From IMG/VR virus record IMGVR_UViG_3300033073_001657, positions 29,419 through 93,418 of that record: a DNA stretch of 64,000 nucleotides. One strand, given 5' to 3'. Positions 634 through 56,413 of this stretch are shown here, piece by piece. Source of the DNA: a virus (Duplodnaviria; Heunggongvirae; Uroviricota; Caudoviricetes). The notes under the pieces are model-generated. The model made no database searches, had not been told where the DNA came from, and worked only from the letters and a program-made list of their open reading frames with translations. A program made the position numbers and the translations under genes. How positions within the stretch are numbered: the first letter of the stretch is position 1; the number at the start of each line of letters is the position of its first letter.

Positions 634-1125
634 ATGACTAAATACGTTAAATTATACGAAGACTATCAACAGGAAATCAATAAGACTACTGAGGAGACTG
701 GTCATACTTGGACTCAAATTAGGGATGCGATTCAAACTAAAATTCCATTCGTAATAATTACTTTTAAGAACAGTGAAAGCTATTCTTCTGCACTCGATTC
801 AGATCTTCTTCAAGACGATTATATCAAGCAGACTGCCGCCCTTAGTCACGATGGTAAGCTACTTGATTATCCTTCAATCTTCATGATACTTGACGATGAT
901 GTCGATTTCAAAGATAAGATACCACAAATCTTCGAAAAATATAAGATCAAGACCCTAATTTTTGGTAAAAAGGGAGAAGAATACGTTGATTATTATTTTG
1001 AAGACGGAACATCATCCCCTGCAGGAAACGAGATAGTCTCATCAATCAGTAAAGACGATATGGAGAACGATGAACACTTTAAAATGGGTTCAACTTATTA
1101 TAAATTCATCGATTTCGCCGGTTAA
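634..1125 (+). CDS. hypothetical protein with CTS-like N-terminus (MTKYVKLYED)
   Basis: 163-aa ORF preceded by a late-type box. The N-terminus KYVKLYED is shared with ORFs 3682-4050 and 55415-56413. Confidence 0.55.
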   Translation: MTKYVKLYEDYQQEINKTTEETGHTWTQIRDAIQTKIPFVIITFKNSESYSSALDSDLLQDDYIKQTAALSHDGKLLDYPSIFMILDDDVDFKDKIPQIFEKYKIKTLIFGKKGEEYVDYYFEDGTSSPAGNEIVSSISKDDMENDEHFKMGSTYYKFIDFAG

Positions 1126-1168
1126 ACTTTTATTCTTTTTTAAGTATAAAGGATAAAATACTTTTATT

Positions 1169-1603
1169 ATGAACGAAGAGACAAAAGCAAAGATTTCTAA
1201 AAAGTTTCAAGATCGTAGAGCTGAGGTTTCTAAAGAGATTTATGAAAATATCGAAAAACTTTCAAATCTTAAGACTCTTAAGGAGGCTCAAGTAAACATG
1301 CTCTCTCTTCGCCAAAGATTATTGGAAGACAATCATACTCTATTAGAACACGTTACTCTTCTTAGGAAAAAATACAGAGACGAGCGCTCGATCGAGATGG
1401 AAAACATATCTAGGAACCTTCAAATACGATACCAAGCCAACGAAAAAAATGTTGTGATTGAGGGTAGAACTTCAAACACCAAAGAATCATTGGAGATATT
1501 TGAAAATCAAATCTCCTTTTTTAATGAATCCATTAAGACTATCGATAACATCATATTTGGTATCAAGACTAGACTCGATATAGAAAAAACACTGGGTCTA
1601 TAA
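1169..1603 (+). CDS. hypothetical coiled-coil protein
   Basis: 144-aa ORF. An AGTATAAA box lies just upstream. Confidence 0.5.
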   Translation: MNEETKAKISKKFQDRRAEVSKEIYENIEKLSNLKTLKEAQVNMLSLRQRLLEDNHTLLEHVTLLRKKYRDERSIEMENISRNLQIRYQANEKNVVIEGRTSNTKESLEIFENQISFFNESIKTIDNIIFGIKTRLDIEKTLGL

Positions 1604-1614
1604 AAAAATGGACA

Positions 1615-3221: not shown

Positions 3222-3623
3222 TTACCATTGCCATCTTCCACTAGAAAATTCTTCATTTGATATTTCTTCAATGCTAATTTCTCCACCAATCTCTTCTTCA
3301 AGCAGTGTCTCTATTAGACGTTTAAGAAACTCTTCTGTAAATACCGTTTTTACTCTAAAGTATGCAGTGTTTCCTACTATATTAACTCCATCATGTTTAC
3401 GGAACATTAAGTAATCGGGTTTAAGCTGAGTAAATTTACGAGTCAACATCCCTTCGCTCCTAGATTGACTTTCAGTACCGACATATTCTGGAGATAGTTC
3501 TACTTTAATTCGATATGCTCTAGGTATTAGGTAAACCATTGTATCCCTATGCTGATTTTGCGTAATAGAATCATCTAGATTTTCATTAATAAACTTAGAA
3601 AAAGTTGGAATATATTCTTTCAT
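3222..3623 (-). CDS. virion/internal protein candidate with CTS (MKEYIPTFSKFINE)
   Basis: 133-aa ORF. The N-terminal FxxFINE motif is present and a late-type box lies at 3626-3650. Confidence 0.6.
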   Translation of the reverse strand: MKEYIPTFSKFINENLDDSITQNQHRDTMVYLIPRAYRIKVELSPEYVGTESQSRSEGMLTRKFTQLKPDYLMFRKHDGVNIVGNTAYFRVKTVFTEEFLKRLIETLLEEEIGGEISIEEISNEEFSSGRWQW

Positions 3624-3681: not shown

Positions 3682-4050
3682 CTATCCAGTAGAATCAATA
3701 AATTTCATCTCCTTTGCAGTCATTCCATCAGGTTTCGGATGGCTCTTGCATCGAGCTCGATGAGTGTGTATGAACCAACCGTTCTTATCCACTCCCATCG
3801 AATATCCGGAAGGATATTTACCCTCACGAATCTTCTTTTTTAAGTCCGGATGCAGACTTAGTCCTGTGACTATTCCTTTTTTTGCATTAGTAATATATTG
3901 AATGTATTTACACGCTTCTTCTTTGTATTCCTTTGGCAGGTTTTTCAAGTTCATGATAGATTTAGCTTTCTCATCACTATCATATTTAAAAGAGTGACCG
4001 TATCTACTCTTCTCAACGACTATTTCTTCGTATAATTTAATGTATTTCAT
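3682..4050 (-). CDS. hypothetical protein with CTS-like N-terminus (MKYIKLYEE)
   Basis: 122-aa ORF. The box GAATAAATAAATGT lies directly upstream. Confidence 0.55.
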   Translation of the reverse strand: MKYIKLYEEIVVEKSRYGHSFKYDSDEKAKSIMNLKNLPKEYKEEACKYIQYITNAKKGIVTGLSLHPDLKKKIREGKYPSGYSMGVDKNGWFIHTHRARCKSHPKPDGMTAKEMKFIDSTG

Positions 4051-8148: not shown

Positions 8149-8457
8149 ATGAAAAGAATCATGTCTTTTAGAGAATATAAATTAAATGAGATGGAGGAAA
8201 TTGAAACTCCATTTGAATTGGACGAGTCGTTGCTTGACGAACTTGTTGAAATCGTCGGATCTGAAGAAGATATCGAAGAAGCTGCTGAGGAAGCTTATAA
8301 TGATCTTGCAGAAGCCGCTGAAAACGGAGAACTTGAAATGTCAGAGGAAGACATGCCAGAAAAACTGGTAGTTGCTGCACTTCTCGTTAAATTAGTAGAA
8401 AAAGGAAAACTTGGTCCAGAAGATGCAGATGGACTGATCGAAAAATACCTAGGATAA
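8149..8457 (+). CDS. small, highly acidic protein with CTS-like N-terminus (MKRIMSFREYKLNE)
   Basis: 102 aa. The protein is very rich in Glu/Asp, and the late box lies upstream. Confidence 0.55.
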   Translation: MKRIMSFREYKLNEMEEIETPFELDESLLDELVEIVGSEEDIEEAAEEAYNDLAEAAENGELEMSEEDMPEKLVVAALLVKLVEKGKLGPEDADGLIEKYLG

Positions 8458-8543: not shown

Positions 8544-9044
8544 ATGAAGCAAGAAAGAGACATACACGATTTTCTTAAACCACAAAGAGGAAAAGTCAAA
8601 CAGGGTTACTTTACTCCAATGAATCCTGAAAAATATTCTGGCGATGTAAGTAAGATCATCTATCGTTCGAGTTGGGAACTTAAATTCTTGACATATTGCG
8701 ATAACACTGAAGCCGTCGTTGAATACGCTTCAGAACCCATGCCGATTAAATACTGGAACCCTATCTTAAAAAAGGAATCTACTTATTGGGTTGACTGTTA
8801 TATGGCCACAAAGTCACCTGAAGGTGAGATCACTAAATGGCTGATTGAAGTAAAACCTCAAAAGTATCTTAGTCCACCGGAACCGCCTAATCGACTTACT
8901 GAAAAAGCTACTCTTAATTATGCTCGTCATGCTAAAGCGTATATCATCAATGATGCAAAGTTTAGAGCAGCAAAAGTGTATGCAAAAAAGAATAATATGC
9001 GATTCGGCATAATAACAGAAAACTTTCTGTTTAATAAAGTGTAA
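8544..9044 (+). CDS. hypothetical protein
   Basis: 166-aa ORF. Box GAAATAAATAATCAAT lies upstream. Confidence 0.5.
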   Translation: MKQERDIHDFLKPQRGKVKQGYFTPMNPEKYSGDVSKIIYRSSWELKFLTYCDNTEAVVEYASEPMPIKYWNPILKKESTYWVDCYMATKSPEGEITKWLIEVKPQKYLSPPEPPNRLTEKATLNYARHAKAYIINDAKFRAAKVYAKKNNMRFGIITENFLFNKV

Positions 9045-9673: not shown

Positions 9674-9674
9674 T

Positions 9675-11393
9675 ATGGCAGGATTCTTAGATACCTCAGG
9701 AAGAAGAGTAAGTAGCGCTCTATCAAACTTAAGTAAGTTTGGTACAAGACACGAAGACCTTTTGCTTAAAAATTCACAAGCAATCGGTTTTATTGAAAGT
9801 CAGTTACAGTCTCGTACTTCTAGGCTAAACTCGAACGATGAACTTCTTAAGTTCTCAATGGCGATATCCGATACTACTTCTCAATTAAGAACTAAGGCGA
9901 TAGCTTTCTTTCAATTAGATTATGTAGTAAAAAGAGAGCGATTACGAGACGTTGCAGCCAATGGTGAAATCGAATTTATCCTTGAAACCATCGTCGACGA
10001 TATGATCGTTTATGACGATGAACAACGTTTTATCTATCCTAAAGACCTTACTGGTAAGATGCTTTATCGAGGAGATACAAAAGAAGAACGTTTGAATTTT
10101 CAAGAAAAAGTACTTAGAAAATATAACGATAACTTTGAAAGAATTTACACTGCTTGGGGATTCGCTGAAGGCATTTCTGCATGGCAATATGCATTTCAAT
10201 TCTTAGTAGAAGGACACCTCTCTTTTGAGATTATCTATGATGACTTAGAAAAACCTAAAGAAGTAATTGGATTTAAGGAACTTGATCCTGCTAGTATTGC
10301 TCCTCAATTACAGAAGGACTCTAAAGGTAAGATTTTTCTACAGTGGTTACAATACGATCAACAGACTGGTTCTACCAGAGTTCTTAATGATTCTCAAGTA
10401 ATCTATATCTCGTATGCTAATCACTTTAGAACAAAGAGAGTAAGTTTCGTTGAACGTCTAATTAGATCTTTTAACCTACTAAGAATCATCGAACACAGTA
10501 AAGTTATTTGGCACGTGATGAATGCGCCTATTCGTTTAACAACAACTGTTCCAATCGGAAGTAAGAGTTTTCAAAAGGGTCAAGAAGACGTTCGTGAATT
10601 CTTAAACATGTTCAAAGAAGACATCTATTTTAATGGTGATTCTGGAGAGCTAAACGTAGACGGTAAACCAAATATCCTATTTTATAAGAATTATATTTTA
10701 CCAGTTAATGACCAGAACCAACAAGTAAAAATTGAGACTCTGCAGACTCCTGGACCTAACTTGTCTGGGTCAGAACTATTGAACTATTTTTACAAAAAAT
10801 TGAAAATGGATTCAAAGATTCCTTATTCAAGATGGGAAGGTCAGTCTGGTATGGGTGCATTTACTCTTAATGCTGAAGGTATTACTCGTGAAGAGGTACG
10901 TTATCAAAAATTTGTCAATCGATTAAGATCGGCTTTTTCAGAGATGATGGTTAAACCATGGTATTTGCAAATGTGTTTAGACTTTCCCGATCTAGCCGAC
11001 GACTATAAGTTTAACAATGCAATAGGAATCAAATTCAATAATGATAACGTCTTTGAAGAGATGAAGAAAAATGAAATTGAAGCTAAGCGAATTGCTTCGT
11101 TCCAAGCTAAGAAAGGAGTAATGAAAGATGACGGTACTCCATTCTTCTCTACTGAATACTTAATTAGAGAAGAGCTTAAGATGACTGAATCTGAGATCCA
11201 AGCCAATCAGACTTGGTTCGATCAACACATAGATGAGGAAGAGGAAGCAGCGGCGGCACCTGCCGGAGCCGCTCCAGGAGCACAACCGGCACCAGGAGGC
11301 GGAGCACCGGCCGCTCCAGGCGGAGAGGCACCAGCTGAAGGAGGAAGTGAAGTAAAAGAAGGTGGAGAAACTTCTGGAGAAGGGCAACTTTAA
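9675..11393 (+). CDS. large structural protein, possibly portal
   Basis: 572 aa. The C-terminal tail is low-complexity and Ala/Pro/Gly/Glu-rich. The size and the position before the virion block fit a portal, but no motif was recognised. Confidence 0.3.
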   Translation: MAGFLDTSGRRVSSALSNLSKFGTRHEDLLLKNSQAIGFIESQLQSRTSRLNSNDELLKFSMAISDTTSQLRTKAIAFFQLDYVVKRERLRDVAANGEIEFILETIVDDMIVYDDEQRFIYPKDLTGKMLYRGDTKEERLNFQEKVLRKYNDNFERIYTAWGFAEGISAWQYAFQFLVEGHLSFEIIYDDLEKPKEVIGFKELDPASIAPQLQKDSKGKIFLQWLQYDQQTGSTRVLNDSQVIYISYANHFRTKRVSFVERLIRSFNLLRIIEHSKVIWHVMNAPIRLTTTVPIGSKSFQKGQEDVREFLNMFKEDIYFNGDSGELNVDGKPNILFYKNYILPVNDQNQQVKIETLQTPGPNLSGSELLNYFYKKLKMDSKIPYSRWEGQSGMGAFTLNAEGITREEVRYQKFVNRLRSAFSEMMVKPWYLQMCLDFPDLADDYKFNNAIGIKFNNDNVFEEMKKNEIEAKRIASFQAKKGVMKDDGTPFFSTEYLIREELKMTESEIQANQTWFDQHIDEEEEAAAAPAGAAPGAQPAPGGGAPAAPGGEAPAEGGSEVKEGGETSGEGQL

Positions 11394-12932: not shown

Positions 12933-13376
12933 TTATTGATTTGATCCGGTTCCTCCACCACGTTTATCACTAAATCTAACGCTAGACTTATCAATATCTA
13001 AGTTAAATTCTTTATCTCCCATCGATCTACCGATCGCTCTCTGATTCTTCTTAGCAATTACTGCATCCTGTTTACCAGCTCTTTCCATAGAGTTTTTCAT
13101 TACTTGATCTAGAGCTTGAGCTTTCATCTTTTTCTTCCAATCGCTGTGAAAGATCATATTCATTGCTCTAGTTATATCGACCTCTTGAACATGTCCATCA
13201 TAACGATTTGGGTTGCGTGCAGCTTTTTCATTAGCTAGTTCCCTAGCTATTGACATAATCGAAGTATAAAGTCCACCCAATGCACCTTGCACCATGCCTT
13301 TAAAATTAGTTGGGTACACCACTTCCTTAGTAGCTTCATTGATAAATTGATGATATGTTTTTATGTTTCTTTCCAT
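12933..13376 (-). CDS. internal/virion protein candidate with T4-like CTS (MERNIKTYHQFINE)
   Basis: The N-terminus closely matches the T4 internal protein III CTS MKTYQEFIAE. Confidence 0.6.
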   Translation of the reverse strand: MERNIKTYHQFINEATKEVVYPTNFKGMVQGALGGLYTSIMSIARELANEKAARNPNRYDGHVQEVDITRAMNMIFHSDWKKKMKAQALDQVMKNSMERAGKQDAVIAKKNQRAIGRSMGDKEFNLDIDKSSVRFSDKRGGGTGSNQ

Positions 13377-13705
13377 TATGCAGTAGGTGTAGCTGGGGCA
13401 GCAGGTTGTGCTGGAGCAGCTGGCTGATTTGCAGCAGCATTCTTTTGTGCAGCATTAGACTTAAGAACAGCTGCATCATACGCTTTTTGTAGATTCAAAA
13501 CTTTTGTATCTTGAGTAGCTTTTTGAGTGTTTATTTGAAGCTGTATTTCTTTTTCTTTCTGTAAAGCATTATATTGTGTTAAAAGAGCAGGATCAGTCGG
13601 TGCACCCTCTTCTTTAATCATTTGAGGATTTGCACCAGCTTCTACTTCTTGTGATGCTTTGTTTTCAGCATTTTGAAAGCTTTTAAAACTTTTTACGTAA
13701 GCCAT
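13376..13705 (-). CDS. internal/virion protein candidate with CTS (MAYVKSFKSFQNAE), Ala/Pro/Gln-rich
   Basis: 109 aa. A late box lies at 13715-13733. Confidence 0.55.
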   Translation of the reverse strand: MAYVKSFKSFQNAENKASQEVEAGANPQMIKEEGAPTDPALLTQYNALQKEKEIQLQINTQKATQDTKVLNLQKAYDAAVLKSNAAQKNAAANQPAAPAQPAAPATPTA

Positions 13706-13714
13706 TTTAATCTG

Positions 13715-13733
13715 CTTTTTTATTATTTATTTG
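13715..13733 (-). promoter_or_regulatory. late-type promoter box (AAATAAATAATAAAAAAG on - strand)
   Basis: Recurrent motif. Confidence 0.4.
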
Positions 13734-13998
13734 TAAATCGTTTTGATGTCTCGACAAACTCTTGATACGACAAAACTTTAACTTTTTTCTCCATCCTAGG
13801 ATTAGATCCGAATGCGCTACTCGCACTTCTTCCACCAAGGAACGGAGAATTATTCCATTGTGCTGGAACGGTCCCAGATGATCCCGAATAGAACATCATA
13901 GCATTTGCACGTTTAGTATCCGGCTCCATGATTCTTTCTGCTGGATCTGGTTCCATCATGATTGCACCAAAGCCCTCGACTAGTCTCATTAACCTCAT
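13723..13998 (-). CDS. hypothetical protein
   Basis: 91-aa ORF. Confidence 0.4.
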   Translation of the reverse strand: MRLMRLVEGFGAIMMEPDPAERIMEPDTKRANAMMFYSGSSGTVPAQWNNSPFLGGRSASSAFGSNPRMEKKVKVLSYQEFVETSKRFTNK

Positions 13999-13999
13999 A

Positions 14000-14461
14000 T
14001 TATCCTTGTGGAAAATCTAATTCTTCAGCTGGTTGGTCCAATGAAAATTCAGGAGCCTGTGGTTCCATTTGTTTTGAGAAATTAATATCAGTATCATCAC
14101 CTTCCATTTCAGTCTCTTCAGGAGCTTCTCCAGTAGTCTGATTAAGAATTTCTTCAGTATTTGAGTCAATGAATTGTTGTAGTCCCATACAGATAAGTGG
14201 GTTAATTGCATTACAACGATCGATTAATTCTCTTACCGTCAAGTTCATTACATCAGGTTGAGGCAATGCTTGTTGTTCTTGATCTGGGTTTTCCTGAAAA
14301 TCAAAATCTGGCATCATTTCCTCTGGTGATTGAACTGGTGCAGGTGGAGCCATTTGTGGCATAGATTGATCCATTTGTGGCATAGGTTGAGGGGCTGGCA
14401 TCTGTCCATTCATTGGTAACTGTTGAACATCATCAGCTTCATAAAGTCTCTTAATACGCAT
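14000..14461 (-). CDS. Pro/Gln/Met-rich acidic protein (scaffold- or internal-protein-like)
   Basis: 153 aa with N-terminus MRIKRLYEADD. A late box lies at 14484-14495. Confidence 0.5.
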   Translation of the reverse strand: MRIKRLYEADDVQQLPMNGQMPAPQPMPQMDQSMPQMAPPAPVQSPEEMMPDFDFQENPDQEQQALPQPDVMNLTVRELIDRCNAINPLICMGLQQFIDSNTEEILNQTTGEAPEETEMEGDDTDINFSKQMEPQAPEFSLDQPAEELDFPQG

Positions 14462-14529: not shown

Positions 14530-14778
14530 ATGAAGGAAAAAGATATAACTGCTAGACAAGCTGCATTGAATACTGCTCTCCGAGATACAATACTTAAGAA
14601 AATAGATGCCCTTAGGGAAAACATAGTTTTTGGAAAAGGCTCAGACAAGCCATCATATTTTCAAATGTTGATCATGGTGGATGAAGACCTAGATGATGTT
14701 TTACTTAATTGGGAATATGATTCGATTAATCCTAAGTTATCCTTTAATGGAGATGACTCCGATGAAGATGATTATTGA
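14530..14778 (+). CDS. hypothetical protein
   Basis: 82-aa ORF. Confidence 0.4.
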   Translation: MKEKDITARQAALNTALRDTILKKIDALRENIVFGKGSDKPSYFQMLIMVDEDLDDVLLNWEYDSINPKLSFNGDDSDEDDY

Positions 14779-15236
14779 TTCACATCGACTATGAATTTTC
14801 CAGCTCTAAGAAAATTTTTACCTAATATGCATGGATATTTCATGCTTTCTCGATCTGCTAGTGAGACTTTGATTTTAAATGAGTGTTCTCCTAATTCAAC
14901 TGTTGTATTAATCTGATATCTAGTCTCTTCTGAGCCAGAAGAGTTTTTTACTCTTATCTTCTTAAAATTTTTAAATTCCAAAACCTTTTTAGGCGAAGTT
15001 ACCCAAAAGAAGAGAACTCCTCCTTTTTCCTTTATATCATTTGCATGGATTGAGGTTCCGTCTGCACCAGTATCAAGCTTTGCTCTAATTGACTTTATTC
15101 CAAGGTCAGGAAAAGCTATTTTTTCAGCTTGTGATAGAGATCGAGGGTTAGAACCATATATGGTCCATCCATCAGGTCCTTGGTTAATCTTTGCAAGATC
15201 CAGGAATTCTCTAAAATTTTCTACTAATCTTATCAT
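14772..15236 (-). CDS. retropepsin-like aspartic protease domain protein with CTS-like N-terminus
   Basis: The motif AKLDTGADGTSIHA matches the D-T/S-G-A active-site signature. The N-terminus is MIRLVENFREF. Confidence 0.45.
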   Translation of the reverse strand: MIRLVENFREFLDLAKINQGPDGWTIYGSNPRSLSQAEKIAFPDLGIKSIRAKLDTGADGTSIHANDIKEKGGVLFFWVTSPKKVLEFKNFKKIRVKNSSGSEETRYQINTTVELGEHSFKIKVSLADRESMKYPCILGKNFLRAGKFIVDVNQ

Positions 15237-15237
15237 A

Positions 15238-15861: not shown

Positions 15862-16446
15862 TTACATGTTGCATCCGCAAGAATATCCGTACTCGTTTGA
15901 GATTGGAACCTCTCCACAAATCTCACAAGTATCATCATCTTCTTCATTATGCGTATGATCTTCTTCGTCAAAAATATTTGGATAGTCTCCGTATTCTTCG
16001 TTAAGAAATTGAGCGAATCCTTTTACTAGAGTGATTCCTTCTTCTACTTTCTTTTTAGGATTTGCTCCAGCTTCAGGATTACCTTCCTCTTTTTCATCTT
16101 CGTCAGCCTCACCTTCTTCTGATCCGCCTTCTGCATGTTCAGCTTCCTCTTCTTCCGGTGACTCTTCGTTTTCATGTTCTTCGTTCTCTTCTGGTGCATT
16201 CATCTCTTGAGTATTATCTGCTGAGAATGCAGGTGAACCTTCTTCTCCAGGTCCAGCTGGGGTCATTTCATAGTTTCCAGCGACCGGTCTATTTGGTCCT
16301 ATTTGAGGTTGATCATATGTTTCTTCGTCAAAGCCTTCTTCGAAATTGGATGCAGCGTTCTTGATATCGTTTACGCTAGCTGGTTCGGTACTTCCATTAG
16401 AATATTTGTCAGAAAATTCCGTAAAATTTAAAACTCTACCTGGCAT
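15862..16446 (-). CDS. highly acidic protein with CTS (MPGRVLNFTEF) and C-terminal Cys cluster
   Basis: 194 aa. A long Glu/Asp run is followed by CEICG...CGC. Late box at 16458-16472. Confidence 0.55.
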   Translation of the reverse strand: MPGRVLNFTEFSDKYSNGSTEPASVNDIKNAASNFEEGFDEETYDQPQIGPNRPVAGNYEMTPAGPGEEGSPAFSADNTQEMNAPEENEEHENEESPEEEEAEHAEGGSEEGEADEDEKEEGNPEAGANPKKKVEEGITLVKGFAQFLNEEYGDYPNIFDEEDHTHNEEDDDTCEICGEVPISNEYGYSCGCNM

Positions 16447-17400: not shown

Positions 17401-17432
17401 AAAAAGCCGAGTTTAAACTCGGCTTTTTTATT
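17401..17432. terminator. bidirectional rho-independent terminator
   Basis: An A-run precedes the stem agccgagt / actcggct and a T-run follows, between convergent genes. Confidence 0.65.
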
Positions 17433-18214
17433 TACATTCTATATGCTTCTTTAAATGAGGTGTATCCGATGGTAAATCTTCGCCACTCAATTTGTGAATC
17501 GGGTTCGACTCCTTCATCCATTAGGAATTTAATTAGATCCATTGCATTTTTTCGATCTACTGCAAGTAGTGGCATTCTTTCGCTCTCAAACATCTGAATA
17601 GCTCCATCATGAGTTATAAATCCATGTATTACGACTGTTCCCCAGTCGGAATCCTTTCCTACTATTTTAAAATTTGAACCAAATGAACTGCGAAGTTCAA
17701 GATCAGTAACTGATAAATTAACTTCATCTCTATCTTGTCCACCAATAGGCATCCCTATTAGTTTAACCTCAGTAACTTGATTAGTTCCGTATTGTTTTCT
17801 ATGAGATGCTACGCGATCAGCAAAAACGCCCATGTTTCTTCCTCGTAGATCAGTCTCAATTTCTCTCCACTTTTTACCAGATACTTCATTCACATAACTT
17901 TCGAAGGTCTTAACAAAAATATCCCTTTCTGAAAAAGGATCCATTTCTCTATGTGAAGGAACTGCTACACTATTTTTTAGAAAGTTATATACTTCTTGAA
18001 TATCATCAGCTGACGATGCAATATGATCTACTGCCCATTCATGACCACCTTTTAGGATTTCATCAACTTGAGTACGATCCATTTGTACCAATTCATCGAT
18101 TATTCTCTTCATGGTTTCCAAGTTTCCAAAAAACATGTAATTTAGATCAGAGCCAGACTCTGCACATTTATCTGAGCTTCCTCCACATCCACATGAACAT
18201 TCATTAATTCTCAT
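17432..18214 (-). CDS. hypothetical protein with N-terminal Cys cluster
   Basis: 260-aa ORF. Confidence 0.5.
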   Translation of the reverse strand: MRINECSCGCGGSSDKCAESGSDLNYMFFGNLETMKRIIDELVQMDRTQVDEILKGGHEWAVDHIASSADDIQEVYNFLKNSVAVPSHREMDPFSERDIFVKTFESYVNEVSGKKWREIETDLRGRNMGVFADRVASHRKQYGTNQVTEVKLIGMPIGGQDRDEVNLSVTDLELRSSFGSNFKIVGKDSDWGTVVIHGFITHDGAIQMFESERMPLLAVDRKNAMDLIKFLMDEGVEPDSQIEWRRFTIGYTSFKEAYRM

Positions 18215-19816: not shown

Positions 19817-19823
19817 TAATTTT

Positions 19824-34207: not shown

Positions 34208-34791
34208 GTAAGAAGATCAGCTACTAACGTGTCTCGAGTAACATCAGCTTTAATTTTCTTAGCTGCTGCAATAAAGCCTTTAATATAACCTTCTGTATCA
34301 TTTTCATTAGGCGGAGCATAAGTATAGAAAAATTGAGCAATCGTAGGTTTAGCTCCCTTAACATACTTCTTTCCGCCTTTGCTTGAAACGATTAATGTCT
34401 GATTACCGGCAGTTGGTGGCATTCCGCCATTTGCCCATTTAATTATCTTCTTTTCGATTAGTGCTTTTGCTCCTAACTCAGGTTTAGAAAAAGCAGCATA
34501 TCTACCGGGTGTTCCATCTAATTTAGTTTCAACCTTAACTGCAGGATCAATATCTTTAAAGTCAGTTCCATCAAGATTTCCTGGGTTGTTATTACGATAT
34601 GATCTAGTTCCCTTTCCGCCATTCGGTTTAGGATCCCATCCTTCTTTATTTGCAATAATTTTTGCTATTTCAAATGGAGCAGATCCGACTGCATATCCGC
34701 TTGCAGCGATAACTGAATCTATGTTGTTCTTGTTTACATTAGTTGTTTCACTCTCATTAATGTGGTTTAACCATTGATTGAAATTTAACAT
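34204..34791 (-). CDS. virion protein candidate with CTS (MLNFNQWLNHINE)
   Basis: 195-aa ORF. Confidence 0.55.
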   Translation of the reverse strand: MLNFNQWLNHINESETTNVNKNNIDSVIAASGYAVGSAPFEIAKIIANKEGWDPKPNGGKGTRSYRNNNPGNLDGTDFKDIDPAVKVETKLDGTPGRYAAFSKPELGAKALIEKKIIKWANGGMPPTAGNQTLIVSSKGGKKYVKGAKPTIAQFFYTYAPPNENDTEGYIKGFIAAAKKIKADVTRDTLVADLLT

Positions 34792-38769: not shown

Positions 38770-39156
38770 ATGGATATATTAGTAGACTTCGATGGGACTT
38801 GCACGACACATGACTTTCCAAAGGTAGGTAAAGAAATTGGCGCACCTGAAGTATTGAGAGACTTAGTATTAGCAGGACATAGACTAATCTTGTTCACCAT
38901 GCGTAGCGATACAAGTCAAGGTAATTATCTAAAGGACGCAGTTCGCTGGTTTGAAGAACAAGATATCCCACTATATGGGATTCAAGAAAATCCTACTCAA
39001 AAGGCATGGACAAGTTCGCCTAAGGCTTATGGCCAACTAATCATTGATGATATATGTTTAGGCATTCCGTTAATGGTGGATCCTGAACTATCAGACAGAC
39101 CCTTTGTTGATTGGGCAAAATGTCGAATCTTAATGGAGGAGTCAGGAATTCTTTAA
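38770..39156 (+). CDS. small HAD-like phosphatase
   Basis: VDFDGTC matches the DxDGT motif. Confidence 0.5.
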   Translation: MDILVDFDGTCTTHDFPKVGKEIGAPEVLRDLVLAGHRLILFTMRSDTSQGNYLKDAVRWFEEQDIPLYGIQENPTQKAWTSSPKAYGQLIIDDICLGIPLMVDPELSDRPFVDWAKCRILMEESGIL

Positions 39157-39479
39157 TCTCTGAACTTTCCTGGAAAAATGCGTCTCCATTCATGACCTTT
39201 AGGAACGTCCTTTGTTCTTACTCCAAAGATTTTCTTTTCAGATTGACGACATGCATCTTCACCATTCCATTTGAATCCATTACGACAGGCCCAACCTTTA
39301 ATAAAAGGAATTTGTAAAGGTTGTCCAGTAACAAAAGGAAAGATAATTCCACTATTGTTTTCGATCTCCTCGATCTTACCGTGACGAATTTTTAGTATAA
39401 TCTCACGACCCATTCTAGAAGTCATGATTATCTCTTCTTCACGTTGCCAGCTTTCAAATAATTGAATATATTGTTTCAT
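39153..39479 (-). CDS. hypothetical protein, CTS-like N-terminus (MKQYIQLFESW)
   Basis: 108-aa ORF. Confidence 0.45.
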   Translation of the reverse strand: MKQYIQLFESWQREEEIIMTSRMGREIILKIRHGKIEEIENNSGIIFPFVTGQPLQIPFIKGWACRNGFKWNGEDACRQSEKKIFGVRTKDVPKGHEWRRIFPGKFRD

Positions 39480-44696: not shown

Positions 44697-44982
44697 AATG
44701 AAGATTGGAATCGTTGAATATAATTTCAGTGAGATTATCGACGAATGGGTCACAGCAGACTGTCGACTTGAGGCACGTGAGATTATTCGACACATGTTGA
44801 AATGGGATACTCGATATACGTATGCTCTACTTGTTGAGTTTATCATATATCATGAAAAAGGCATGGGAAGCATTGTATGCAGCCATCTTGATTTTATGAA
44901 ATCAAAGCTAGTAGACTTTGGAAAGATGAAAGCTGGAGGATGTTTCGGCTCTCCATTCACCAAACTAGAAGATGATGTTTAA
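44677..44982 (+). CDS. hypothetical protein
   Basis: 101-aa ORF. Confidence 0.4.
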   Translation: MKTRSLKMKIGIVEYNFSEIIDEWVTADCRLEAREIIRHMLKWDTRYTYALLVEFIIYHEKGMGSIVCSHLDFMKSKLVDFGKMKAGGCFGSPFTKLEDDV

Positions 44983-45665
44983 GAATTGACTGCTCTCATT
45001 TGAGAATCAGTTAACTCTACTGCGATGCATGCTTCTCCTTGTTGTTTAATCAAACGTTCCATATAAGGAATAGTGATCCATGCATGACCTCCTTGACCCC
45101 AAGATTGACCCCAAGAGTTTTTAATTCTAATTTTATTGGCTTTAGTATCGACTCCATTTAAGACGTATGCATGTCCTCCCATTAACTGACCAGTAGGTTG
45201 GATAAATCCAATCTGATTAGTATTCATCATGTTTGCATACCAATTAGTTCCTACGACCAGTGGTCCAGTCGTTAGAAGAGTATTTACGATCGTCTTAATA
45301 TCGAATGCCCAATAATAACTAGAAATTTTCTTAGCTGATCTTAAGTATTTTGCTGCTCCTCTAACTGAAGTGCCTTCATAATTTTCACCAGCCCATTCAT
45401 CAAGACGTTGAGCATTATCATATATAAGCTTTGGCGGAACGATTGGTGCAATTCCACCGTGTTCAACTGGTCCGTCTTCGATCCAATGCGCCCATGCATA
45501 ACCTACACAGTAAGGAGTTTCACCTTGATCTCCCCACCAGCCATTATCATTCCAGTAACGCTGTGTGTATTGAATAGTCTTATTGACTGGCAAGTGTTGC
45601 CTGATTAGATATTTTTTATCCCTAGCATCCGGTAGATAGACTCTATTTAGAGTAAAAGATGACAT
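44979..45665 (-). CDS. papain-like (C1 family) cysteine peptidase
   Basis: QGETPYCVGYAWAHW matches QGxCGSCWAF around the catalytic Cys. HAYVLNG...NSWGQSWGQGG matches the His and NSWG..WG..GY motifs. Confidence 0.65.
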   Translation of the reverse strand: MSSFTLNRVYLPDARDKKYLIRQHLPVNKTIQYTQRYWNDNGWWGDQGETPYCVGYAWAHWIEDGPVEHGGIAPIVPPKLIYDNAQRLDEWAGENYEGTSVRGAAKYLRSAKKISSYYWAFDIKTIVNTLLTTGPLVVGTNWYANMMNTNQIGFIQPTGQLMGGHAYVLNGVDTKANKIRIKNSWGQSWGQGGHAWITIPYMERLIKQQGEACIAVELTDSQMRAVNS

Positions 45666-45666: not shown

Positions 45667-47163
45667 TTAAGAATTAAGTTTTATCCAAATCTCATAAGGA
45701 AGTAGAGCAGATTCACCAAGATATTTCTTACGAACTGCTTCGGCTGCTTCTCTTCCGCCCTTTTGATATGCGTCCAAGATACGATCATTAATCTCCTCTT
45801 GAGAAAGATTCTCATCTTCTTCTGGTTCAAACATAGATCCCGGTTCTTCTTCAATTTCAGGTGCGACCTGTGCAGGCCCCGGAGATCCTTGTTTTTGAGC
45901 AGCTTGATACGCCTCTTCAGCATCTAAGTTGTTGAGAGCCTCTTCTACCAAAGGATGAAATAACTCTTCTATTTTTGTTTGATCTTCACTTAATACTGTA
46001 TAAACGATCTTTAACATTTCTTTTGCATCCTCTTGATGAGAAACTGCAAGTAAACCAAATACCATCCAGAAGAGTCTTTCCTCAAAGGCTCCAAGCTCGT
46101 CCCAGTCTTCATCCGATTCAAGATTATTTCGATATCCTTCAAGTCTCTCATTTACATCAGGCTGAGAGGAGATTGCTCTATAAAAAGATTCTTGCATCTC
46201 AGGCCCATACTTAAATTCCTGTGCCTCATCAAGTAGAGTATCAGTATTTGATATTACTAAGTCGGCTCCTTCTCCATAGAGGTGTTCTAGGCTCAACTGT
46301 AAAGGAAGCTTATAGACTGCTTTAATTGCTTCGTGAATTAGAACTGACATGTCCACTCCTCGAGCAGTAATGCTTGCACCTATTCCCTGAACTAAGTCCG
46401 CAGCTGCTTCACTGTCTTCCAATGGAGACCCGTTCATGATTTCATCAATAAGATCTTCAGCAGATTTTTCTTTTTGTTCAGCTTCTTCATCAGACTTAAA
46501 ATTTTCTTTCTCTTCAAAATCGATTTTACAGGCACCAGCAGTTCCTCCACGTAATGCTCGCTTAATGAATTCCTCTGATAATCTCCAATCGTTAAATTGA
46601 CTGATGCTTGAAATCTTATTTAATACTTCAAGATATTCATCAGCTGCGTCTCCGATAATGCTGCGAACTCCATTTTTAAACATTGGCAAGTTTAAAATAG
46701 CTTTAGAGGTTAGACCTTTACCTTGTTGAATAGTTCTTAATATTTTACGTCTCTCGATCTCACTTAAAATTCTTTCATCATCGATAGATTCGATCCTCTG
46801 TTCGATGTTACTCTCGTCTGGAGTTTCTTGAATCATTTGACTTGCTTCCGGTCCAATCTTAAAACTAAGAGTGACATCATTAAGAAAACTTCCAAATAAC
46901 TTTATAAATGAATCTTCTGCAAGTTTTGATAAATCGTCTTCATGTCCTCTTTGGATCTGCTGTGATCTACCGATTAACTGGCCAAATCTCATAAGATCTT
47001 GGCGATTCTCTCTCTCGAAATTAGCCATTTTTGCCTCTTTCTCAGTGCTAGTCTTCTTTAGCCATGAGTTAGATTCATCTCCAGCTTCTCCTGGAATTCC
47101 TCTATTTCCTTCTAATGAAACTTCATTTAGGAAAGATTTAAAATCGCGTACCTTATTTTGCAT
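45667..47163 (-). CDS. large acidic virion/internal protein candidate with CTS (MQNKVRDFKSFLNE)
   Basis: 498-aa ORF. Confidence 0.6.
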   Translation of the reverse strand: MQNKVRDFKSFLNEVSLEGNRGIPGEAGDESNSWLKKTSTEKEAKMANFERENRQDLMRFGQLIGRSQQIQRGHEDDLSKLAEDSFIKLFGSFLNDVTLSFKIGPEASQMIQETPDESNIEQRIESIDDERILSEIERRKILRTIQQGKGLTSKAILNLPMFKNGVRSIIGDAADEYLEVLNKISSISQFNDWRLSEEFIKRALRGGTAGACKIDFEEKENFKSDEEAEQKEKSAEDLIDEIMNGSPLEDSEAAADLVQGIGASITARGVDMSVLIHEAIKAVYKLPLQLSLEHLYGEGADLVISNTDTLLDEAQEFKYGPEMQESFYRAISSQPDVNERLEGYRNNLESDEDWDELGAFEERLFWMVFGLLAVSHQEDAKEMLKIVYTVLSEDQTKIEELFHPLVEEALNNLDAEEAYQAAQKQGSPGPAQVAPEIEEEPGSMFEPEEDENLSQEEINDRILDAYQKGGREAAEAVRKKYLGESALLPYEIWIKLNS

Positions 47164-47425
47164 ATCTATCGTGTAAATTTTTGATCATCATCTTTCCTTC
47201 TGGAGTATCTTTAATATTTTCCAATTCTTGAAAGAATAAGTCAATCATTTCAGCATACTCAGCCATAGGTTTAGTCTTTTCCTTTTCGCTAGGTCTCTTA
47301 GTAGGAACTGGTCTAAATGGTCTAGTAACTGGCGGTGCAGTAACAGGAGGAGCAGTAGTCGGTTTAGTTTTAGTATCATCCATTAAGAACCTTTCGTTCA
47401 TAGTCTTGATGTGCTTTCTAGCCAT
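47153..47425 (-). CDS. hypothetical Pro/Thr-rich protein
   Basis: 90 aa. Late box ATAAATAACTAAAA at 47438-47454. Confidence 0.5.
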   Translation of the reverse strand: MARKHIKTMNERFLMDDTKTKPTTAPPVTAPPVTRPFRPVPTKRPSEKEKTKPMAEYAEMIDLFFQELENIKDTPEGKMMIKNLHDRYAK

Positions 47426-47530: not shown

Positions 47531-49048
47531 ATGAATGGAATTTTAAATTTTTCCCAATGGGTCAGAACTACTGCACTAAATGAAAACGTTAAAGCAGCAA
47601 AAGCTTACTTAATTAAAAAGTACGCCGACTATCATAAGCTTGAGGAAATTACACCAGAAGATGAACGCAAAGCAGTTGACATTAAAGCTTATCATCAGAT
47701 TAGAGAAATAGTTGGATCGAACGATGGATACGTTTACCCATTCATTAAGTTTCATTTTGAGCAAAAAATACCTATATCTGGTTCAGCTGAGACTCGAGTT
47801 ACCCTAAAAAATCTCTATGCTAAGATTAAGGATCACGCTGGAATTCTAAATACTCTTCCTATGACTATTCAACAGTATTCTGAAACTCCAATGGTTGGAG
47901 GTGTTTCTGGCTGTGAAGCGTTAATGGATGAGTTTGATAGATATGATCTTAGGAAAAAACATAAATGGGTCATTGAAAAAGTTAATGGCGAGTTACGTAG
48001 AAGCATTAAGCAATTGTCAAGAGATGAAATTAACAGGTTGTATGATGCCGCTAAGATAATAGATGATGTTGATGCGGAGTCCGGAAAAGAATATAAAGAC
48101 AGTCAGCAAGTAAGCATATTAAAGAAATCTAATGCATTTAAAGATGGATTAACTTATTTGAATGCAATTGAATCTACCGCTGAAGGTTTATCAAACTCAG
48201 ATGTAAATCAAAAAATTAATGAATTAAGAACAGTTTCACCAGAAGCAGGTTTAATTTATGCTGGTGGAGGATACCTTGTAATATCAGTTAGAACACAGAG
48301 AGCTCAACTTGAACTATTTAAAATAGTTGATTCGACATGGTGCTTAAATTATGCAAAAGCTCATAAATCATATGGAGGAAAGCCAGGATACCTACAGTAT
48401 AATATTTTCAATTTTAATTTACCAGTAACAGATCAGTTATATATTGTTGGGAATACAATTGATGCATCTAATAATCTTTCAAATGCTCATCAGATGAATG
48501 ATGCGTCAATCGTAAAATCTAGAAATTTTGCTGAACACCTTAGAATATTAGGATATCCAGAAGAATTAATTACGGCGACCGTTGAAAGTATCCCAGAAGA
48601 GAGACAAATTAAAAATATTGTTGCTGACTTAGAATTAGAGTCTCCTAATCCAACAGAATCACTATTTAAAATTATTAAATCGAGTTACCACACGAGCATA
48701 GATAAGGATCCTGAGCTTTTAAGCATCATAGTTGGAATTATACGAGACCAATTAGCTAAAAGACTTTCTAAACAAGCTATTTTAGAAGGTTACATGAAGT
48801 TTGGAGTCATGTCCGAATTTTCGGCGAGAGTATTAAATGTTCTTATTCCAAATATCACAGATGAAGAAAAAACTCAGCTACTAAATAAAAATGATCAGAT
48901 CATAAATGATCCGGTTAGAGGTTTTAAAGCAGTTATAGCTAGAAACGGTAGATCGATGTATCCACAAATAACTAAAGCTGTCGATAATGAAGAAAAAATT
49001 AAAGACATTATTGCTAGTGGAGAATCAATTACTTCTGAAGGTTTCTAA
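47531..49048 (+). CDS. virion/internal protein candidate with CTS (MNGILNFSQWVRTTALNE)
   Basis: 505-aa ORF. Confidence 0.55.
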   Translation: MNGILNFSQWVRTTALNENVKAAKAYLIKKYADYHKLEEITPEDERKAVDIKAYHQIREIVGSNDGYVYPFIKFHFEQKIPISGSAETRVTLKNLYAKIKDHAGILNTLPMTIQQYSETPMVGGVSGCEALMDEFDRYDLRKKHKWVIEKVNGELRRSIKQLSRDEINRLYDAAKIIDDVDAESGKEYKDSQQVSILKKSNAFKDGLTYLNAIESTAEGLSNSDVNQKINELRTVSPEAGLIYAGGGYLVISVRTQRAQLELFKIVDSTWCLNYAKAHKSYGGKPGYLQYNIFNFNLPVTDQLYIVGNTIDASNNLSNAHQMNDASIVKSRNFAEHLRILGYPEELITATVESIPEERQIKNIVADLELESPNPTESLFKIIKSSYHTSIDKDPELLSIIVGIIRDQLAKRLSKQAILEGYMKFGVMSEFSARVLNVLIPNITDEEKTQLLNKNDQIINDPVRGFKAVIARNGRSMYPQITKAVDNEEKIKDIIASGESITSEGF

Positions 49049-54579: not shown

Positions 54580-54882
54580 ATGAAACACTTAATCAAACAG
54601 TATCCTAACGATCAGGAATTAGGTCGCGCGATACGAAAACGATTCTTAACTGAAGGTGATGAAGCAGCTGAGCTCTTAAAGGAGGTTCTTGCTCTACATG
54701 GATTTGGTGGGTATGGTTATACGAACGGTTTAGTCGAAAGAGGTATTTATCTTGAGACAGAAGACGGTCAGATCAGAAAGTGGAAGAACTCTTGTGATGG
54801 CGAGATGATGAATGAAGTAGATGCAAAAATAAGAGCATTCTTAGAAAAAATAGGAGACAATGACAGGAAAGATCGTAAATAA
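54580..54882 (+). CDS. hypothetical protein
   Basis: 100-aa ORF. Confidence 0.45.
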   Translation: MKHLIKQYPNDQELGRAIRKRFLTEGDEAAELLKEVLALHGFGGYGYTNGLVERGIYLETEDGQIRKWKNSCDGEMMNEVDAKIRAFLEKIGDNDRKDRK

Positions 54883-55093
54883 GGATAATGAGTTAATGGT
54901 TGAGTACTTGACTCAGTACGGTAGAACTAAAACGATTCCTATTATCAAAGCACCTGAGTCAATCAAAGAGGGACATGTAGTTGATTTTCAACCAGTTGAC
55001 GAGTTTTCTCATCCTATGCTCTTCGTAAACGTTGGCCTTTTTGAAGGGCTTGAATCAGCACTAATCCTAGTAGACTACGGCAACAATGATTGA
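54860..55093 (+). CDS. hypothetical protein
   Basis: 77-aa ORF. Confidence 0.4.
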   Translation: MTGKIVNKDNELMVEYLTQYGRTKTIPIIKAPESIKEGHVVDFQPVDEFSHPMLFVNVGLFEGLESALILVDYGNND

Positions 55094-55418
55094 TGATATT
55101 AAGATCGTGCATCTAAAGAGCAATGCACAACGTCTTGAGACATGGATCGCTATGGTCAATGGTGAGATAGTTGGTCACATCTATATGGAACGAGAAGAGA
55201 ATAAGAAGATCAAGTTCTTGGATGCTTGGGTTCATGAAGATCACCGACGTAAAGGAATATTCAGAAGTCTTTGGGATGCTAGATGGGACTATGTACAATT
55301 AAAGTTTAAAGGCTATCTAGTCTATGCTTGGTGTAAGCCGGCTTCTCTACCTCTACTTATTGAAAAGGGCTTTGATGCTGGTGAGACATGTACATATGTT
55401 GAAAAAATAGTAGATTAA
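55086..55418 (+). CDS. small GNAT-like acetyltransferase (putative)
   Basis: HEDHRRKGIFRSLW resembles GNAT motif A (R/Q-x-x-G-x-G/A). Confidence 0.35.
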   Translation: MIDDIKIVHLKSNAQRLETWIAMVNGEIVGHIYMEREENKKIKFLDAWVHEDHRRKGIFRSLWDARWDYVQLKFKGYLVYAWCKPASLPLLIEKGFDAGETCTYVEKIVD

Positions 55419-56413
55419 GCGATTCCTTTTGGGCCATCAATCGATGGAAATCTTGCCGGGTTAGTGAAAGCAATAAATATCTGACGAATATATGCGCCTT
55501 TTCCCTGCCAACCGAAATCCTTTATGTCTTTGATCTCAACGTTAGGGTCAGCTAAACCTGATTTAATTCGAGTCTTAAGCTCATCGATTTGAAGTTTAGC
55601 TCTAGCGATAGAGCCAGATGGACCTTCCTTCGGTCCAGCCCCTCCTCTACTTGTCAATCCCATCCACGCTTTACCGTCTTTACTCTCCTCAATAACTACT
55701 CTCCAATTTACTTTCCAAGAGGAATCATCCATTTTAATATCAATGCTCGTAATCTCAGGATTACGACCGCTCTGATAGAATTCTAGCAGTGCTTTATTTA
55801 CTTTAGTGTTCATCATTCCTCCGAAACCATCCTTTTTTCTAGACTGGAATGAGTGCATCGCGTCGTAGTCTCCAGGTCTAGGGGAATACGATCCCTCGAC
55901 AATTACCCTGTTTGGAGTAGACCTTTGAGATCCAGTAGAGATCGATGCATATTTTTTTAGAGCTCCCCAATGGAGTGGACTATTTGACTTAGATTCGCCT
56001 GGAACAATTCCTTCACCTCGACTAAAACCAGAACCTACATATACATTTTTTGCAGGTATCCCATTTTTTACTGCATTTACTACTATTTGTTTAGCGCTAG
56101 GTCCGTGTGGCTCAATTATGAAAACTCTACTAGGATTGATGTGAGGACTTTTTGATATTTCTTCAGCCTTACTACATCCTGCACTAAACATATAAACGTC
56201 AATCTTTGGATTTTTAGATAAGAATTCTAGTATTACTGAAGTAGGAGTGTTATATCTAAAGCCTTTTACGTTCTTAGAAGAGCCGTATGTCTTCTTTAAT
56301 AGTTGTACCTGTTGATCGATCTTATAATCACTAGGTCGATAGTCAAGTCCACCGATTAGCACTGCATCATACGATGAACCTTCATAATCTTCGTAAATTT
56401 TAATGTACTTCAT
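55415..56413 (-). CDS. virion protein candidate with CTS-like N-terminus (MKYIKIYEDYE)
   Basis: 332 aa. Late box at 56414-56428. Confidence 0.55.
   Translation of the reverse strand: MKYIKIYEDYEGSSYDAVLIGGLDYRPSDYKIDQQVQLLKKTYGSSKNVKGFRYNTPTSVILEFLSKNPKIDVYMFSAGCSKAEEISKSPHINPSRVFIIEPHGPSAKQIVVNAVKNGIPAKNVYVGSGFSRGEGIVPGESKSNSPLHWGALKKYASISTGSQRSTPNRVIVEGSYSPRPGDYDAMHSFQSRKKDGFGGMMNTKVNKALLEFYQSGRNPEITSIDIKMDDSSWKVNWRVVIEESKDGKAWMGLTSRGGAGPKEGPSGSIARAKLQIDELKTRIKSGLADPNVEIKDIKDFGWQGKGAYIRQIFIAFTNPARFPSIDGPKGIA

Follow-up and report, generated by a model that had tools for sequence, protein, structure and literature searches.

Why should about 16 otherwise unrelated phage proteins begin with the same short motif? 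The question is raised by a 64,000-nucleotide stretch of viral DNA (Caudoviricetes; positions 29,419 to 93,418 of IMG/VR record IMGVR_UViG_3300033073_001657), referred to here, at its full length, as the window. A first-pass annotation, made from the sequence alone, listed 19 genes of the window (named here by their left coordinates) and proposed that about 20 proteins share an N-terminal peptide resembling the capsid-targeting sequence (CTS) of bacteriophage T4. All 19 quoted peptides were exact in sequence and position, and about 16 of the 19 were supported as carriers of the motif, which we call the tag; 14772, 15862, and 39153 are doubtful. On balance, we consider the shared N-terminus likely to be a capsid-targeting propeptide of the T4 type, one that marks an unusually large number of proteins. 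This reading stands on conserved T4 CTS positions, T4-type head genes, selection at the protein level, independence of the tag from the protein domain, and association with a promoter-like box, and it loses from the first proposal the three doubtful members and two functional labels.

All counts in the window refer to 110 non-overlapping open reading frames (ORFs), which cover 95% of it. The tag is flexible and 8 to 18 residues long, lies at the extreme N-terminus, and has two elements: a hydrophobic patch, in most cases a pair of aromatics at i and i+3 (Y/K-[IV]-K-[LI]-[YF] in the short form), and an [ILV]-x-Glu site, mostly [IL]-N-E, followed by a small or polar residue. In form A, aromatic-x-x-aromatic is followed after 0 to 5 residues by [ILV]-N/x-E, with the Glu at residue 12 to 18; form B is K/R-[LI]-[YF]-E, with the Glu at residue 8 to 12. 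In every supported member the motif Glu thus falls at residue 8 to 18.

For each pattern, we compared the number of proteins in which it ended within the first 22 amino acids with the number expected from its rate at internal positions of the same 110 proteins. The strict pattern derived from T4, [FYW]xx[FYW][ILV]xE, was present at 5 N-termini against 0.62 expected (Poisson tail, 4.6e-4), [ILV]NE at 9 against 1.73 (Poisson tail, 8e-5), and K[LI]YE at 4, with 0 internal matches in 17,784 positions (Poisson tail, <4e-6). The same three patterns had 0, 2, and 0 matches, respectively, in 107 decoy ORFs. Relaxed or spaced forms of the tag account for about 11 genes beyond the 5 strict ones. Loose versions of the two elements were not enriched among the 110 genes ([ILV]xE, 37 against 43 expected; aromatic-xx-aromatic, 27 against 25.6 expected), and therefore we counted only the specific forms and did not accept 14772, 15862, and 39153. 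A home-made expectation-maximization search allowing zero or one occurrence per sequence (ZOOPS) over residues 2 to 25 returned [NS]-F-x-x-[FW]-[LI]-N with a log-likelihood ratio of 149.6, compared with 126 +/- 7 (maximum, 137.7) for shuffles. Because this score is only modestly above the shuffles and the search was overfitted (gamma, 0.7 to 0.8), we used it as weak support only. The N-terminal enrichment that the first-pass annotation had suggested looking for is thus present for the specific forms.

IMG/VR holds many relatives of the window, with portal proteins 64 to 94% identical to the window's. Across 33 distinct orthologs of 12933, the tag shows little or no variation at Y, F, I/V, N, and E, yet the third positions of their codons vary freely (TTT 15, TTC 14; ATT 9, ATC 9, ATA 5; AAT 23, AAC 8; GAA 22, GAG 11), with entropies of 0.9 to 1.7 bits at the third positions of invariant residues. 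Y8 and E14 are invariant, and the strict pattern is present in 119 of 119 homologs of 12933. Codons also differ between the tags of different window genes. Since synonymous sites vary while the residues are fixed, the conservation is not that of a downstream box or another nucleotide element; equal conservation of synonymous and nonsynonymous sites, which the first-pass annotation had named as the mark of such an element, was not found in the 12933 orthologs. Judged from these codon patterns, the tag motif is selected at the protein level.

The tag is also distributed by family. When 2,397 proteins from the window and 120 related loci were clustered, the 72 families with at least 5 members fell into a bimodal pattern, with the tag in ≥80% of members in 13 families, in ≤7% in 43, and at intermediate frequency in 16. 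The families at ≤7% include those of the portal, gp4-like, neck, gp25-like, polymerase, primase, helicase, and PhoH proteins. Orthologs can exchange one form for the other: the ortholog of 634 in two relatives (L044/L122) carries KTFQHYLNE, of form A, instead of KYVKLYED, and the nucleotidyltransferase (NTase) homologs P0034 and P0129 read MKYLKLYED. Therefore, we treat the long and short forms as one functional motif. In an ortholog of 47531 (52% identity), FSQW and LNE are both kept, now 16 residues apart instead of 5; as read from these sequences, the tag is bipartite.

Beyond the tag, the proteins have little to connect them. With the first 25 residues removed, the tagged proteins showed no significant mutual similarity (best BLAST E value, 0.013). 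In relatives L136-L138, the place of 36198 is taken by an unrelated 406-amino-acid protein, and it too begins with a tag, MLKDFQSFINEA. In the AlphaFold2 (AF2) model of 19073 (predicted local distance difference test [pLDDT], 88), residues 1 to 12 score below 50, a short helix spans residues 8 to 14 within the tag, and the fold starts at about residue 20. Foldseek matched this model to CD-NTases, ANT enzymes, and DrrA, which together with the Pfam match confirms the nucleotidyltransferase fold assigned at first pass. The strict pattern is present in 94 of 118 full-length close homologs of 19073 and, among representatives of the NTase family at 50% identity, in the first 24 amino acids of 27 of 142, against 0.47 expected. 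Tagless relatives start straight at the domain (e.g., MDYYKKELNPSFW), and where a relative has its NTase domain at the C-terminal end, the tag nevertheless occupies the very start of the protein. The tag sits on unrelated proteins, outside the folded domain.

If the tag is a capsid-targeting sequence, it belongs with T4-type head genes. By tblastn, the portal of the window is 38% identical to that of huge uncultured phages, 32% to that of Prevotella Lak phages, and 30% to those of Tenacibaculum phage PTm1 and Sphingomonas phage PAU, the nearest phages in the database, and megablast of the window found no near-identical phage record. The contigs that hold homologs of window proteins are 200 to 270 kb long, and therefore the lineage is one of jumbo phages. 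By its sequence, the window belongs to a very distant, uncultured lineage of T4-like jumbo phages. In Pfam and PHROG scans, it also codes for a UvsW-like helicase, part of a family-B polymerase, a primase, PhoH, and a gp4-like head completion protein, with weaker gp25-like baseplate and neck-like matches.

Neither a prohead protease nor a capsid protein was found among the window proteins tested in these scans, and a phmmer search with PTm1 proteins against the window and portal-flank loci found nothing. The gp21-like protease that the first-pass annotation had proposed to look for elsewhere in the genome is present on the relative L088 as a 658-amino-acid protein (18582-20558) matching Peptidase_S77, the gp21 family, at 38.9 bits (cutoff, 27). 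L088 shares an IMG/VR contig with L071, whose portal is 91% identical to that of the window, and through IMG/VR relatives the protease gene is placed about 20 kb left of the window. In the distant relatives L115 and L109, a Gp23-family capsid gene (119.7 bits) follows the protease gene; the portal on the L115 contig is 70% identical to that of the window. The C-terminal half of the L088 protease is a scaffold of eleven perfect, indel-free 14-residue repeats with the consensus x-[YF]-x-x-[YH]-[LIV]-x-E-x-[LV]-N-x-S-[IV]. The T4-derived pattern fits 7 to 9 of the 11 repeats (e.g., YSQYIAE), and [ILV]NE is found 5 times in the 658 residues, compared with 1.14 per 1000 residues in the window proteome. 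The protease-scaffold fusion is also present in L084, L092, L109, and L115, and a DnaJ-family gene (L088 17507-18535) lies just upstream of the fusion gene.

The T4 CTS itself offers a residue-level comparison. Mutagenesis of MKTYQEFIAE showed that targeting depends mainly on residues 4 and 7 (Y and F) and processing on residues 8 and 10 (I and E) (PMC9026906). The conserved positions of the tag are these same four, and the maturation site of T4 gp23, FGSFLTE/A (the slash marks the cut), fits the same pattern.

Two cultured phages served for comparison. One, PTm1, is AT-rich and resembles the lineage in its portal, protease-scaffold, and capsid genes. Its N-termini were not enriched for the tag (strict pattern, 2 against 1.5 expected; [ILV]NE, 7 against 7.9), and a tag resembling its own scaffold repeat (W-I-x3-F-T-x2-L-S-E) was sought and not found. 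PTm1 is therefore a negative control, and the motif is not a by-product of base composition. Maribacter phage Molly (Molly_1, NC_062751.1; L129-L131), a flavobacterial phage of 124.7 kb, likewise has T4-like portal, protease-scaffold, and capsid genes. It carries a tag of its own, [ST]-L-[VI]-E-[ST], in the first 24 residues of 6 proteins, against 0.23 expected, and altogether on 6 to 8 small proteins (e.g., 13131, 13571, 16762, 17676, 17921, and 118268), against 0.23 to 0.81 expected; the tagged set includes a homolog of the window nucleotidyltransferase 19073. L-T-E-S and I-T-E-S abound in the scaffold and the capsid protein of Molly. The Molly tag ends in a similar way, and the tag ending thus appears to follow the probable cleavage sites of each phage.

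The tagged genes also share a promoter-like box. The strict ATAAATAA box has 26 copies in the window, 21 of which lie 12 to 32 nucleotides (nt) upstream of a start codon. Thirteen of these 21 precede genes on the first-pass list, so the observation that most listed genes sit behind a late-type box held; others precede the gp4-like gene and several large genes without assigned function. When close variants were included, the box preceded 13 of 20 motif genes and 14 of 90 other genes (Fisher p = 2e-5), and of the motif genes without a box, most directly follow another gene in a box-led unit. The gp4-like gene behind ATAAATAA would anchor the box as late or structural. A second box, TAGTATAAT, has 11 copies, all on the + strand before small genes and often 0 to 13 nt from the ATG (for example, at approximately 9666-9674, 21498-21506, 43193-43201, 43787-43795, and 56430-56438). 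Going by position only, it is likely an early or middle promoter giving leaderless or very-short-leader mRNAs.

By analogy with T4, we infer the packaging, cleavage, and injection of tagged proteins as follows. The tagged genes would be transcribed late from ATAAATAA-box promoters, and the aromatic/hydrophobic patch of each product would dock it on a prohead core of the S77 protease-scaffold protein. Once the gp23-family shell had closed, the S77 protease would cut after the Glu of [ILV]-x-E, leaving the mature protein free inside the head. Tagged proteins of the core or scaffold type would then be degraded or expelled, and the remainder would accompany the DNA in the head and pass with it into the host at infection, like the T4 internal proteins (IPs) and Alt.

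Not all tagged proteins need have the same fate. The first-pass annotation had counted very acidic proteins as cargo; acidic proteins are indeed in the set, but 8149, 12933, 13376, and 14000 are more likely parts of the core or scaffold than injected cargo because they are small, acidic, or helical and adjoin the portal and neck genes. Better cargo candidates are probably the nucleotidyltransferase 19073, the transglycosylase-like 34204, and the large (330 to 505 amino acids) proteins without known function. Two enzyme labels given to the cargo at first pass were not supported: none of the tagged proteins scanned against Pfam matched an Asp-protease domain, and the sole Pfam match to a phosphoribosyltransferase (PRTase), in a PRPP-synthetase-like or PRTase protein (23916..24809, +), is in a gene without the tag. 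A second untagged gene, 28953-30431 (+), codes for a 492-amino-acid protein whose N-terminus resembles, putatively, nicotinamide phosphoribosyltransferase.

It is important to note that several observations weigh against the capsid-targeting reading. No cultured member of the lineage was found by portal tblastn against database phages, and the protease and capsid genes lie outside the window and are known from the contigs of relatives. In the 12933 family, the residues right after the Glu are as conserved as the tag, and therefore this family gives no sign of a boundary. We also looked for residue-level mimicry of the scaffold and rejected it: a matrix built from 43 distinct repeat units placed 5 to 6 of its top 50 matches at N-termini, against about 4.3 expected. 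Since the scaffold matrix misses the N-termini of the window, tags and repeats share a residue-class pattern only. The role of ATAAATAA as a late promoter is one that we infer from its position only. Lastly, two tagged genes were found left of the window start, L083 10520-11071 (MATKYTLGYLQYIKE, 183 amino acids) and L083 14977-16920 (MSFEAYLRNWLRINE, 647 amino acids), and the second lies among baseplate-like genes; therefore, not every tagged protein need be a head protein.

This last gene is one reason to consider that the tag is an N-terminal sorting or assembly signal, cleaved or not, for a destination other than the core, such as the tail or baseplate, a membrane site, a chaperone, or another partner. 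The transglycosylase-like domain of 34204, which matches families annotated as tail-associated, and the failure of the scaffold-derived matrix to recognize the tags point the same way. Such a destination would not account for conserved positions that coincide with the targeting and processing residues of the T4 CTS, for an aliphatic-x-Glu ending that is the signature of S77 proteases and is over-represented in the lineage's own scaffold, or for a Molly tag whose ending tracks the sites of the Molly scaffold and capsid protein, and we regard it as unlikely.

We find it improbable that the tag is a zymogen-like pro-sequence and nothing else, removed by the protease so that late enzymes stay inactive until head maturation, with no part in targeting. 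Several tagged proteins are enzymes or enzyme-like, and within the tag conservation is highest at the [ILV]-x-E ending, as this explanation would have it. Yet the aromatic pair is kept separately from the cleavage element, across variable spacers, and its T4 equivalents serve targeting and not processing; many tagged proteins are small, acidic, and non-enzymatic, and in the AF2 model of 19073 the tag is disordered and outside the fold.

Common descent or duplication of a cassette, in which the tagged genes are paralogs or have copied a promoter with its 5' coding segment and share no function, seems very improbable to us. Similar shuffling has been proposed for the internal-protein loci of T-even phages, the unrelated gene at the 36198 position retains the tag, and 50751 and 61891 share a duplicated N-terminus of another kind. 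Shuffling would explain the spread of the tag but not its maintenance: it is under purifying selection across relatives with 64 to 94% portal identity and across clusters at 50% identity, while the tagged proteins lack similarity past residue 25 and differ from one another in codons and in box-to-ATG spacing. No long nucleotide identity over the promoter and first codons was seen between tagged genes.

We give almost no credence to a nucleotide-level origin, whether a downstream box or initiation element of short-leader late mRNAs or an AT-rich codon bias at gene starts, for although late boxes 12 to 32 nt from the ATG must leave very short leaders, the A/T-rich leaders of the window genes contain no Shine-Dalgarno sequence, and the motif residues have AT-rich codons, third positions vary freely under fixed residues, paralogous tags use different codons, the distance from the Met to the motif Glu varies, and neither the decoy ORFs nor PTm1, which is similarly AT-rich and without Shine-Dalgarno sequences, are enriched.

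Beyond the capsid-targeting reading, we raise tentatively, as a possibility we would not yet favor, that among distant T4-like phages the N-terminal "address code" differs from phage to phage and reproduces the cleavable unit of the scaffold that each phage encodes. If so, F-x-x-F-[IL]-N-E in the window would echo Y-x-x-Y-L-x-E and K-L-N-E-S of the scaffold, and K-S-L-V-E-S in Molly would echo the L-T-E-S of its scaffold and capsid protein. Cargo would join the prohead core as a surrogate scaffold unit and be freed by the same cut, and the nucleotidyltransferase cargo would have been re-addressed between lineages by a swap of tag. The full head-packaged, probably injected set of uncultured jumbo phages would then be readable from sequence, and the packaged set here, about 15% of genes, would be the largest such cargo known.

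Table 1. Tagged, candidate, and doubtful genes of the window, with the portal and gp4-like genes. A and B in the form column denote well-supported tags; a slash in the peptide follows the motif Glu; aa, amino acid.
Gene (strand)	Product	Form	N-terminal tag	Tag coordinates	Box	Remarks
634..1125 (+)		B	MTKYVKLYE/D	634..660	ATAAATAA, 605	tag in 34 of 40 orthologs
3222..3623 (-)		A, strict	MKEYIPTFSKFINE/N	3582..3623	ATAAATAA, 3643	
3682..4050 (-)		B	MKYIKLYE/E	4027..4050	4062	
8149..8457 (+)	small, very acidic (31% D+E)	A	MKRIMSFREYKLNE/M	8149..8190	8125	directly upstream of gp4-like gene and portal; orthologs have form A (FASFNASIINE, MNQFLNE), form B (MKLYEFE), or forms with G-A-N-P
8544..9044 (+)	gp4-like head completion gene				ATAAATAA, 8531	
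9675..11393 (+)	T4 gp20-family portal					Pfam Portal_T4, E = 4e-62; tag in 0 of 79 orthologs
12933..13376 (-)	conserved helical protein	A	MERNIKTYHQFINE/A	13335..13376		AF2 model with three helices, pLDDT 66, a confidence too low for a useful fold search
13376..13705 (-)	small	A, variant FKSFQNAE	MAYVKSFKSFQNAE/N	13664..13705	13730	orthologs FKKFIKTEE or FKKFMKTAE; AGANPQM at aa 24
13723..13998 (-)	possible tagged small protein		MRLMRLVE/GF			absent from first-pass list; tag weak in window copy; YINEE, FLNES, or FIKES in 24 of 42 orthologs; FGSNPRM
14000..14461 (-)	acidic, rich in Pro/Gln/Met	B	MRIKRLYE/A	14438..14461	14492	tag in 30 of 36 orthologs
14772..15236 (-)		doubtful	MIRLVE/NFREF			N-terminus conserved but fits neither form A nor form B; YGSNPRS at aa 28
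15862..16446 (-)	very acidic	doubtful	MPGRVLNFTE/F		16472	N-terminus highly conserved, yet motif match in 0 of 31 orthologs; AGANPKK at aa 127
17432..18214 (-)		extra candidate	MRINE/C	18200..18214		absent from first-pass list; R-I-N-E at aa 2-5 in 8 of 9 orthologs
18224..18997 (-)		B	MHKYFNFTKIYE/AE	18962..18997	19023	tag in 9 of 9 orthologs
19073..19816 (+)	Pol-beta-fold nucleotidyltransferase	A	MKQHISTYRNFIFE/N	19073..19114	19060	Pfam NTP_transf_2
19824..20711 (+)		A	MNLYIKPFEPINE/S	19824..19862		next gene downstream of 19073; start is an internal Met of ORF 19788..20711; orthologs begin at same Met and retain x-INES
27136..27795 (-)		A, 1-residue spacer	MSNVLNFKNWVRVNE/A	27751..27795	27820	
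34204..34791 (-)	lytic-transglycosylase-like domain	A	MLNFNQWLNHINE/S	34753..34791		phrog_873, phrog_7182, phrog_2276; ortholog retains tag; next gene downstream of box-bearing 34808
36198..37340 (-)		A, strict	MELLSFNQFINE/G	37305..37340	37353	
39153..39479 (-)		doubtful	MKQYIQLFE/S			GTATAAT early-type box upstream, without late box; orthologs too similar overall to inform on tag
45667..47163 (-)	acidic, 498 aa	A, strict	MQNKVRDFKSFLNE/V	47122..47163		next gene downstream of box-bearing 47153..47425
47531..49048 (+)	505 aa	A, bipartite	MNGILNFSQWVRTTALNE/N	47531..47584	47499	
55415..56413 (-)		B	MKYIKIYE/D	56390..56413	56426	

The coordinates of the tags are collected in Table 1. Pfam and PHROG had no match for 36198, 45667, 47531, 55415, 27136, or 19824, and sequence searches of the PDB with 36198 and 55415 returned nothing significant. 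Next to the tagged genes we noted some features of other kinds. The peptide G-[AS]-N-P has 4 occurrences in the whole window proteome, all in the adjacent small proteins 13376, 13723 (at amino acid 64), 14772, and 15862 (13376-16446, -); it is conserved in the orthologs of these four proteins and is also present in some orthologs of 8149. Directly downstream of 45667 is an untagged papain-like cysteine peptidase (44979..45665, -; phrog_16701, E = 3e-53), and an untagged M28-family peptidase (49560-50309, -) lies near it.

The proteins 50751-52934 (-, 727 amino acids) and 61891-62757 (-, 288 amino acids), both behind a ATAAATAA box, share only their first ∼48 residues (MSFINWG.E.PEQ..IR..., 62% identity), and relatives have the same N-terminus on proteins of 930 and 272 amino acids; this N-terminus is a different module from the tag. 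The untagged 31071-32933 (+) codes for a 620-amino-acid SPFH/Band7 protein (Pfam E = 2.7e-27). At 63055-63165 (+), an Rfam tRNA match of 41.7 bits (gathering score, 29) that ARAGORN missed spans 111 nt, with 55 nt in the anticodon-arm region where the model has 17, and may be an interrupted or unusual tRNA gene.

Capsid targeting is already known in T4 and its close relatives, as is propeptide loading in phiKZ-like giants. In T4, the CTS is carried by the internal proteins IPI, IPII, and IPIII and by Alt (Mullaney and Black 1996; reviewed in PMC9026906 and PMC5694885). The two systems are alike in having an N-terminal propeptide of 10 to 20 residues on otherwise unrelated proteins, which in T4, and probably here, are products of late genes. 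In both, the propeptide presents hydrophobic or aromatic positions at i and i+3 and then aliphatic-x-Glu, and the head genes are of the gp20, gp21, and gp23 families; KTYHQFINE of 12933 equals KTYQEFIAE of T4 at 6 of 9 positions. They differ in number, with at least 16 tagged genes in 64 kb here and more to the left, compared with a handful in T4. Here, too, there are two interchangeable forms, the spacer between targeting and cleavage elements is variable, and P2 is usually Asn. The protease is fused to an eleven-repeat scaffold, whereas T4 genes 21 and 22 are separate, and the lineage, whose portal is about 30 to 38% identical to those of the nearest database phages, is known here from sequence alone.

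In T-even phages, hypervariable internal-protein loci code for diverse proteins in which only the CTS is conserved (PMC3012670, PMC9026906). The position of 36198, where the cargo is swapped and the tag kept in the MLKDFQSFINEA protein, is similar, but the tagged genes here are scattered over the window and not gathered in one locus. The phiKZ-like giants 201phi2-1, phiKZ, and SPN3US have propeptides on inner-body or ejection proteins that are thought to target them to the prohead (PMC5694885, PMC10052503). They, too, are jumbo phages, and many of their head proteins are processed after Glu by a gp21-related protease; however, their sites are A-x-E or S/A/G-x-E and their propeptides mostly >100 residues long (PMC5694885), whereas the tags here have 8 to 18 residues and, like that of T4, an aliphatic residue at P3. 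The window showed no phiKZ-type marker. Encapsulin cargo-loading peptides offer a looser parallel, in which a short terminal peptide suffices to load unrelated cargo into an HK97-fold shell; they are usually C-terminal and are not removed by a maturation protease. Phage P1 Dar proteins have N-terminal packaging determinants (PMC9024508). Both differ from the tag in position, sequence, and machinery. In the literature, we found no such tags described outside T4, phiKZ-like phages, and P1, and none for this lineage or for Bacteroidota-type T4-like phages. This lineage stands out for how many genes are tagged, for two forms that are interchangeable, and for a prohead protease fused to its scaffold; the parallel tag of Molly is notable as well.

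Most of what is known about jumbo and huge phages comes from metagenomes, and the majority of their genes lack a functional assignment. From sequence only, a recognizable tag would single out the proteins that the head takes up and that probably reach the host with the DNA, and lists based on it would name candidate early-acting effectors, anti-defense proteins, and core components in uncultured phages. In engineering, the tag could also be used to have proteins packaged, a purpose that the T4 CTS serves already, and Molly, cultured and with a parallel tag, is an experimental entry point. That the T4 principle would reach a lineage with ∼30 to 38% portal identity suggests that it is old and general among phages with a gp21-family protease.

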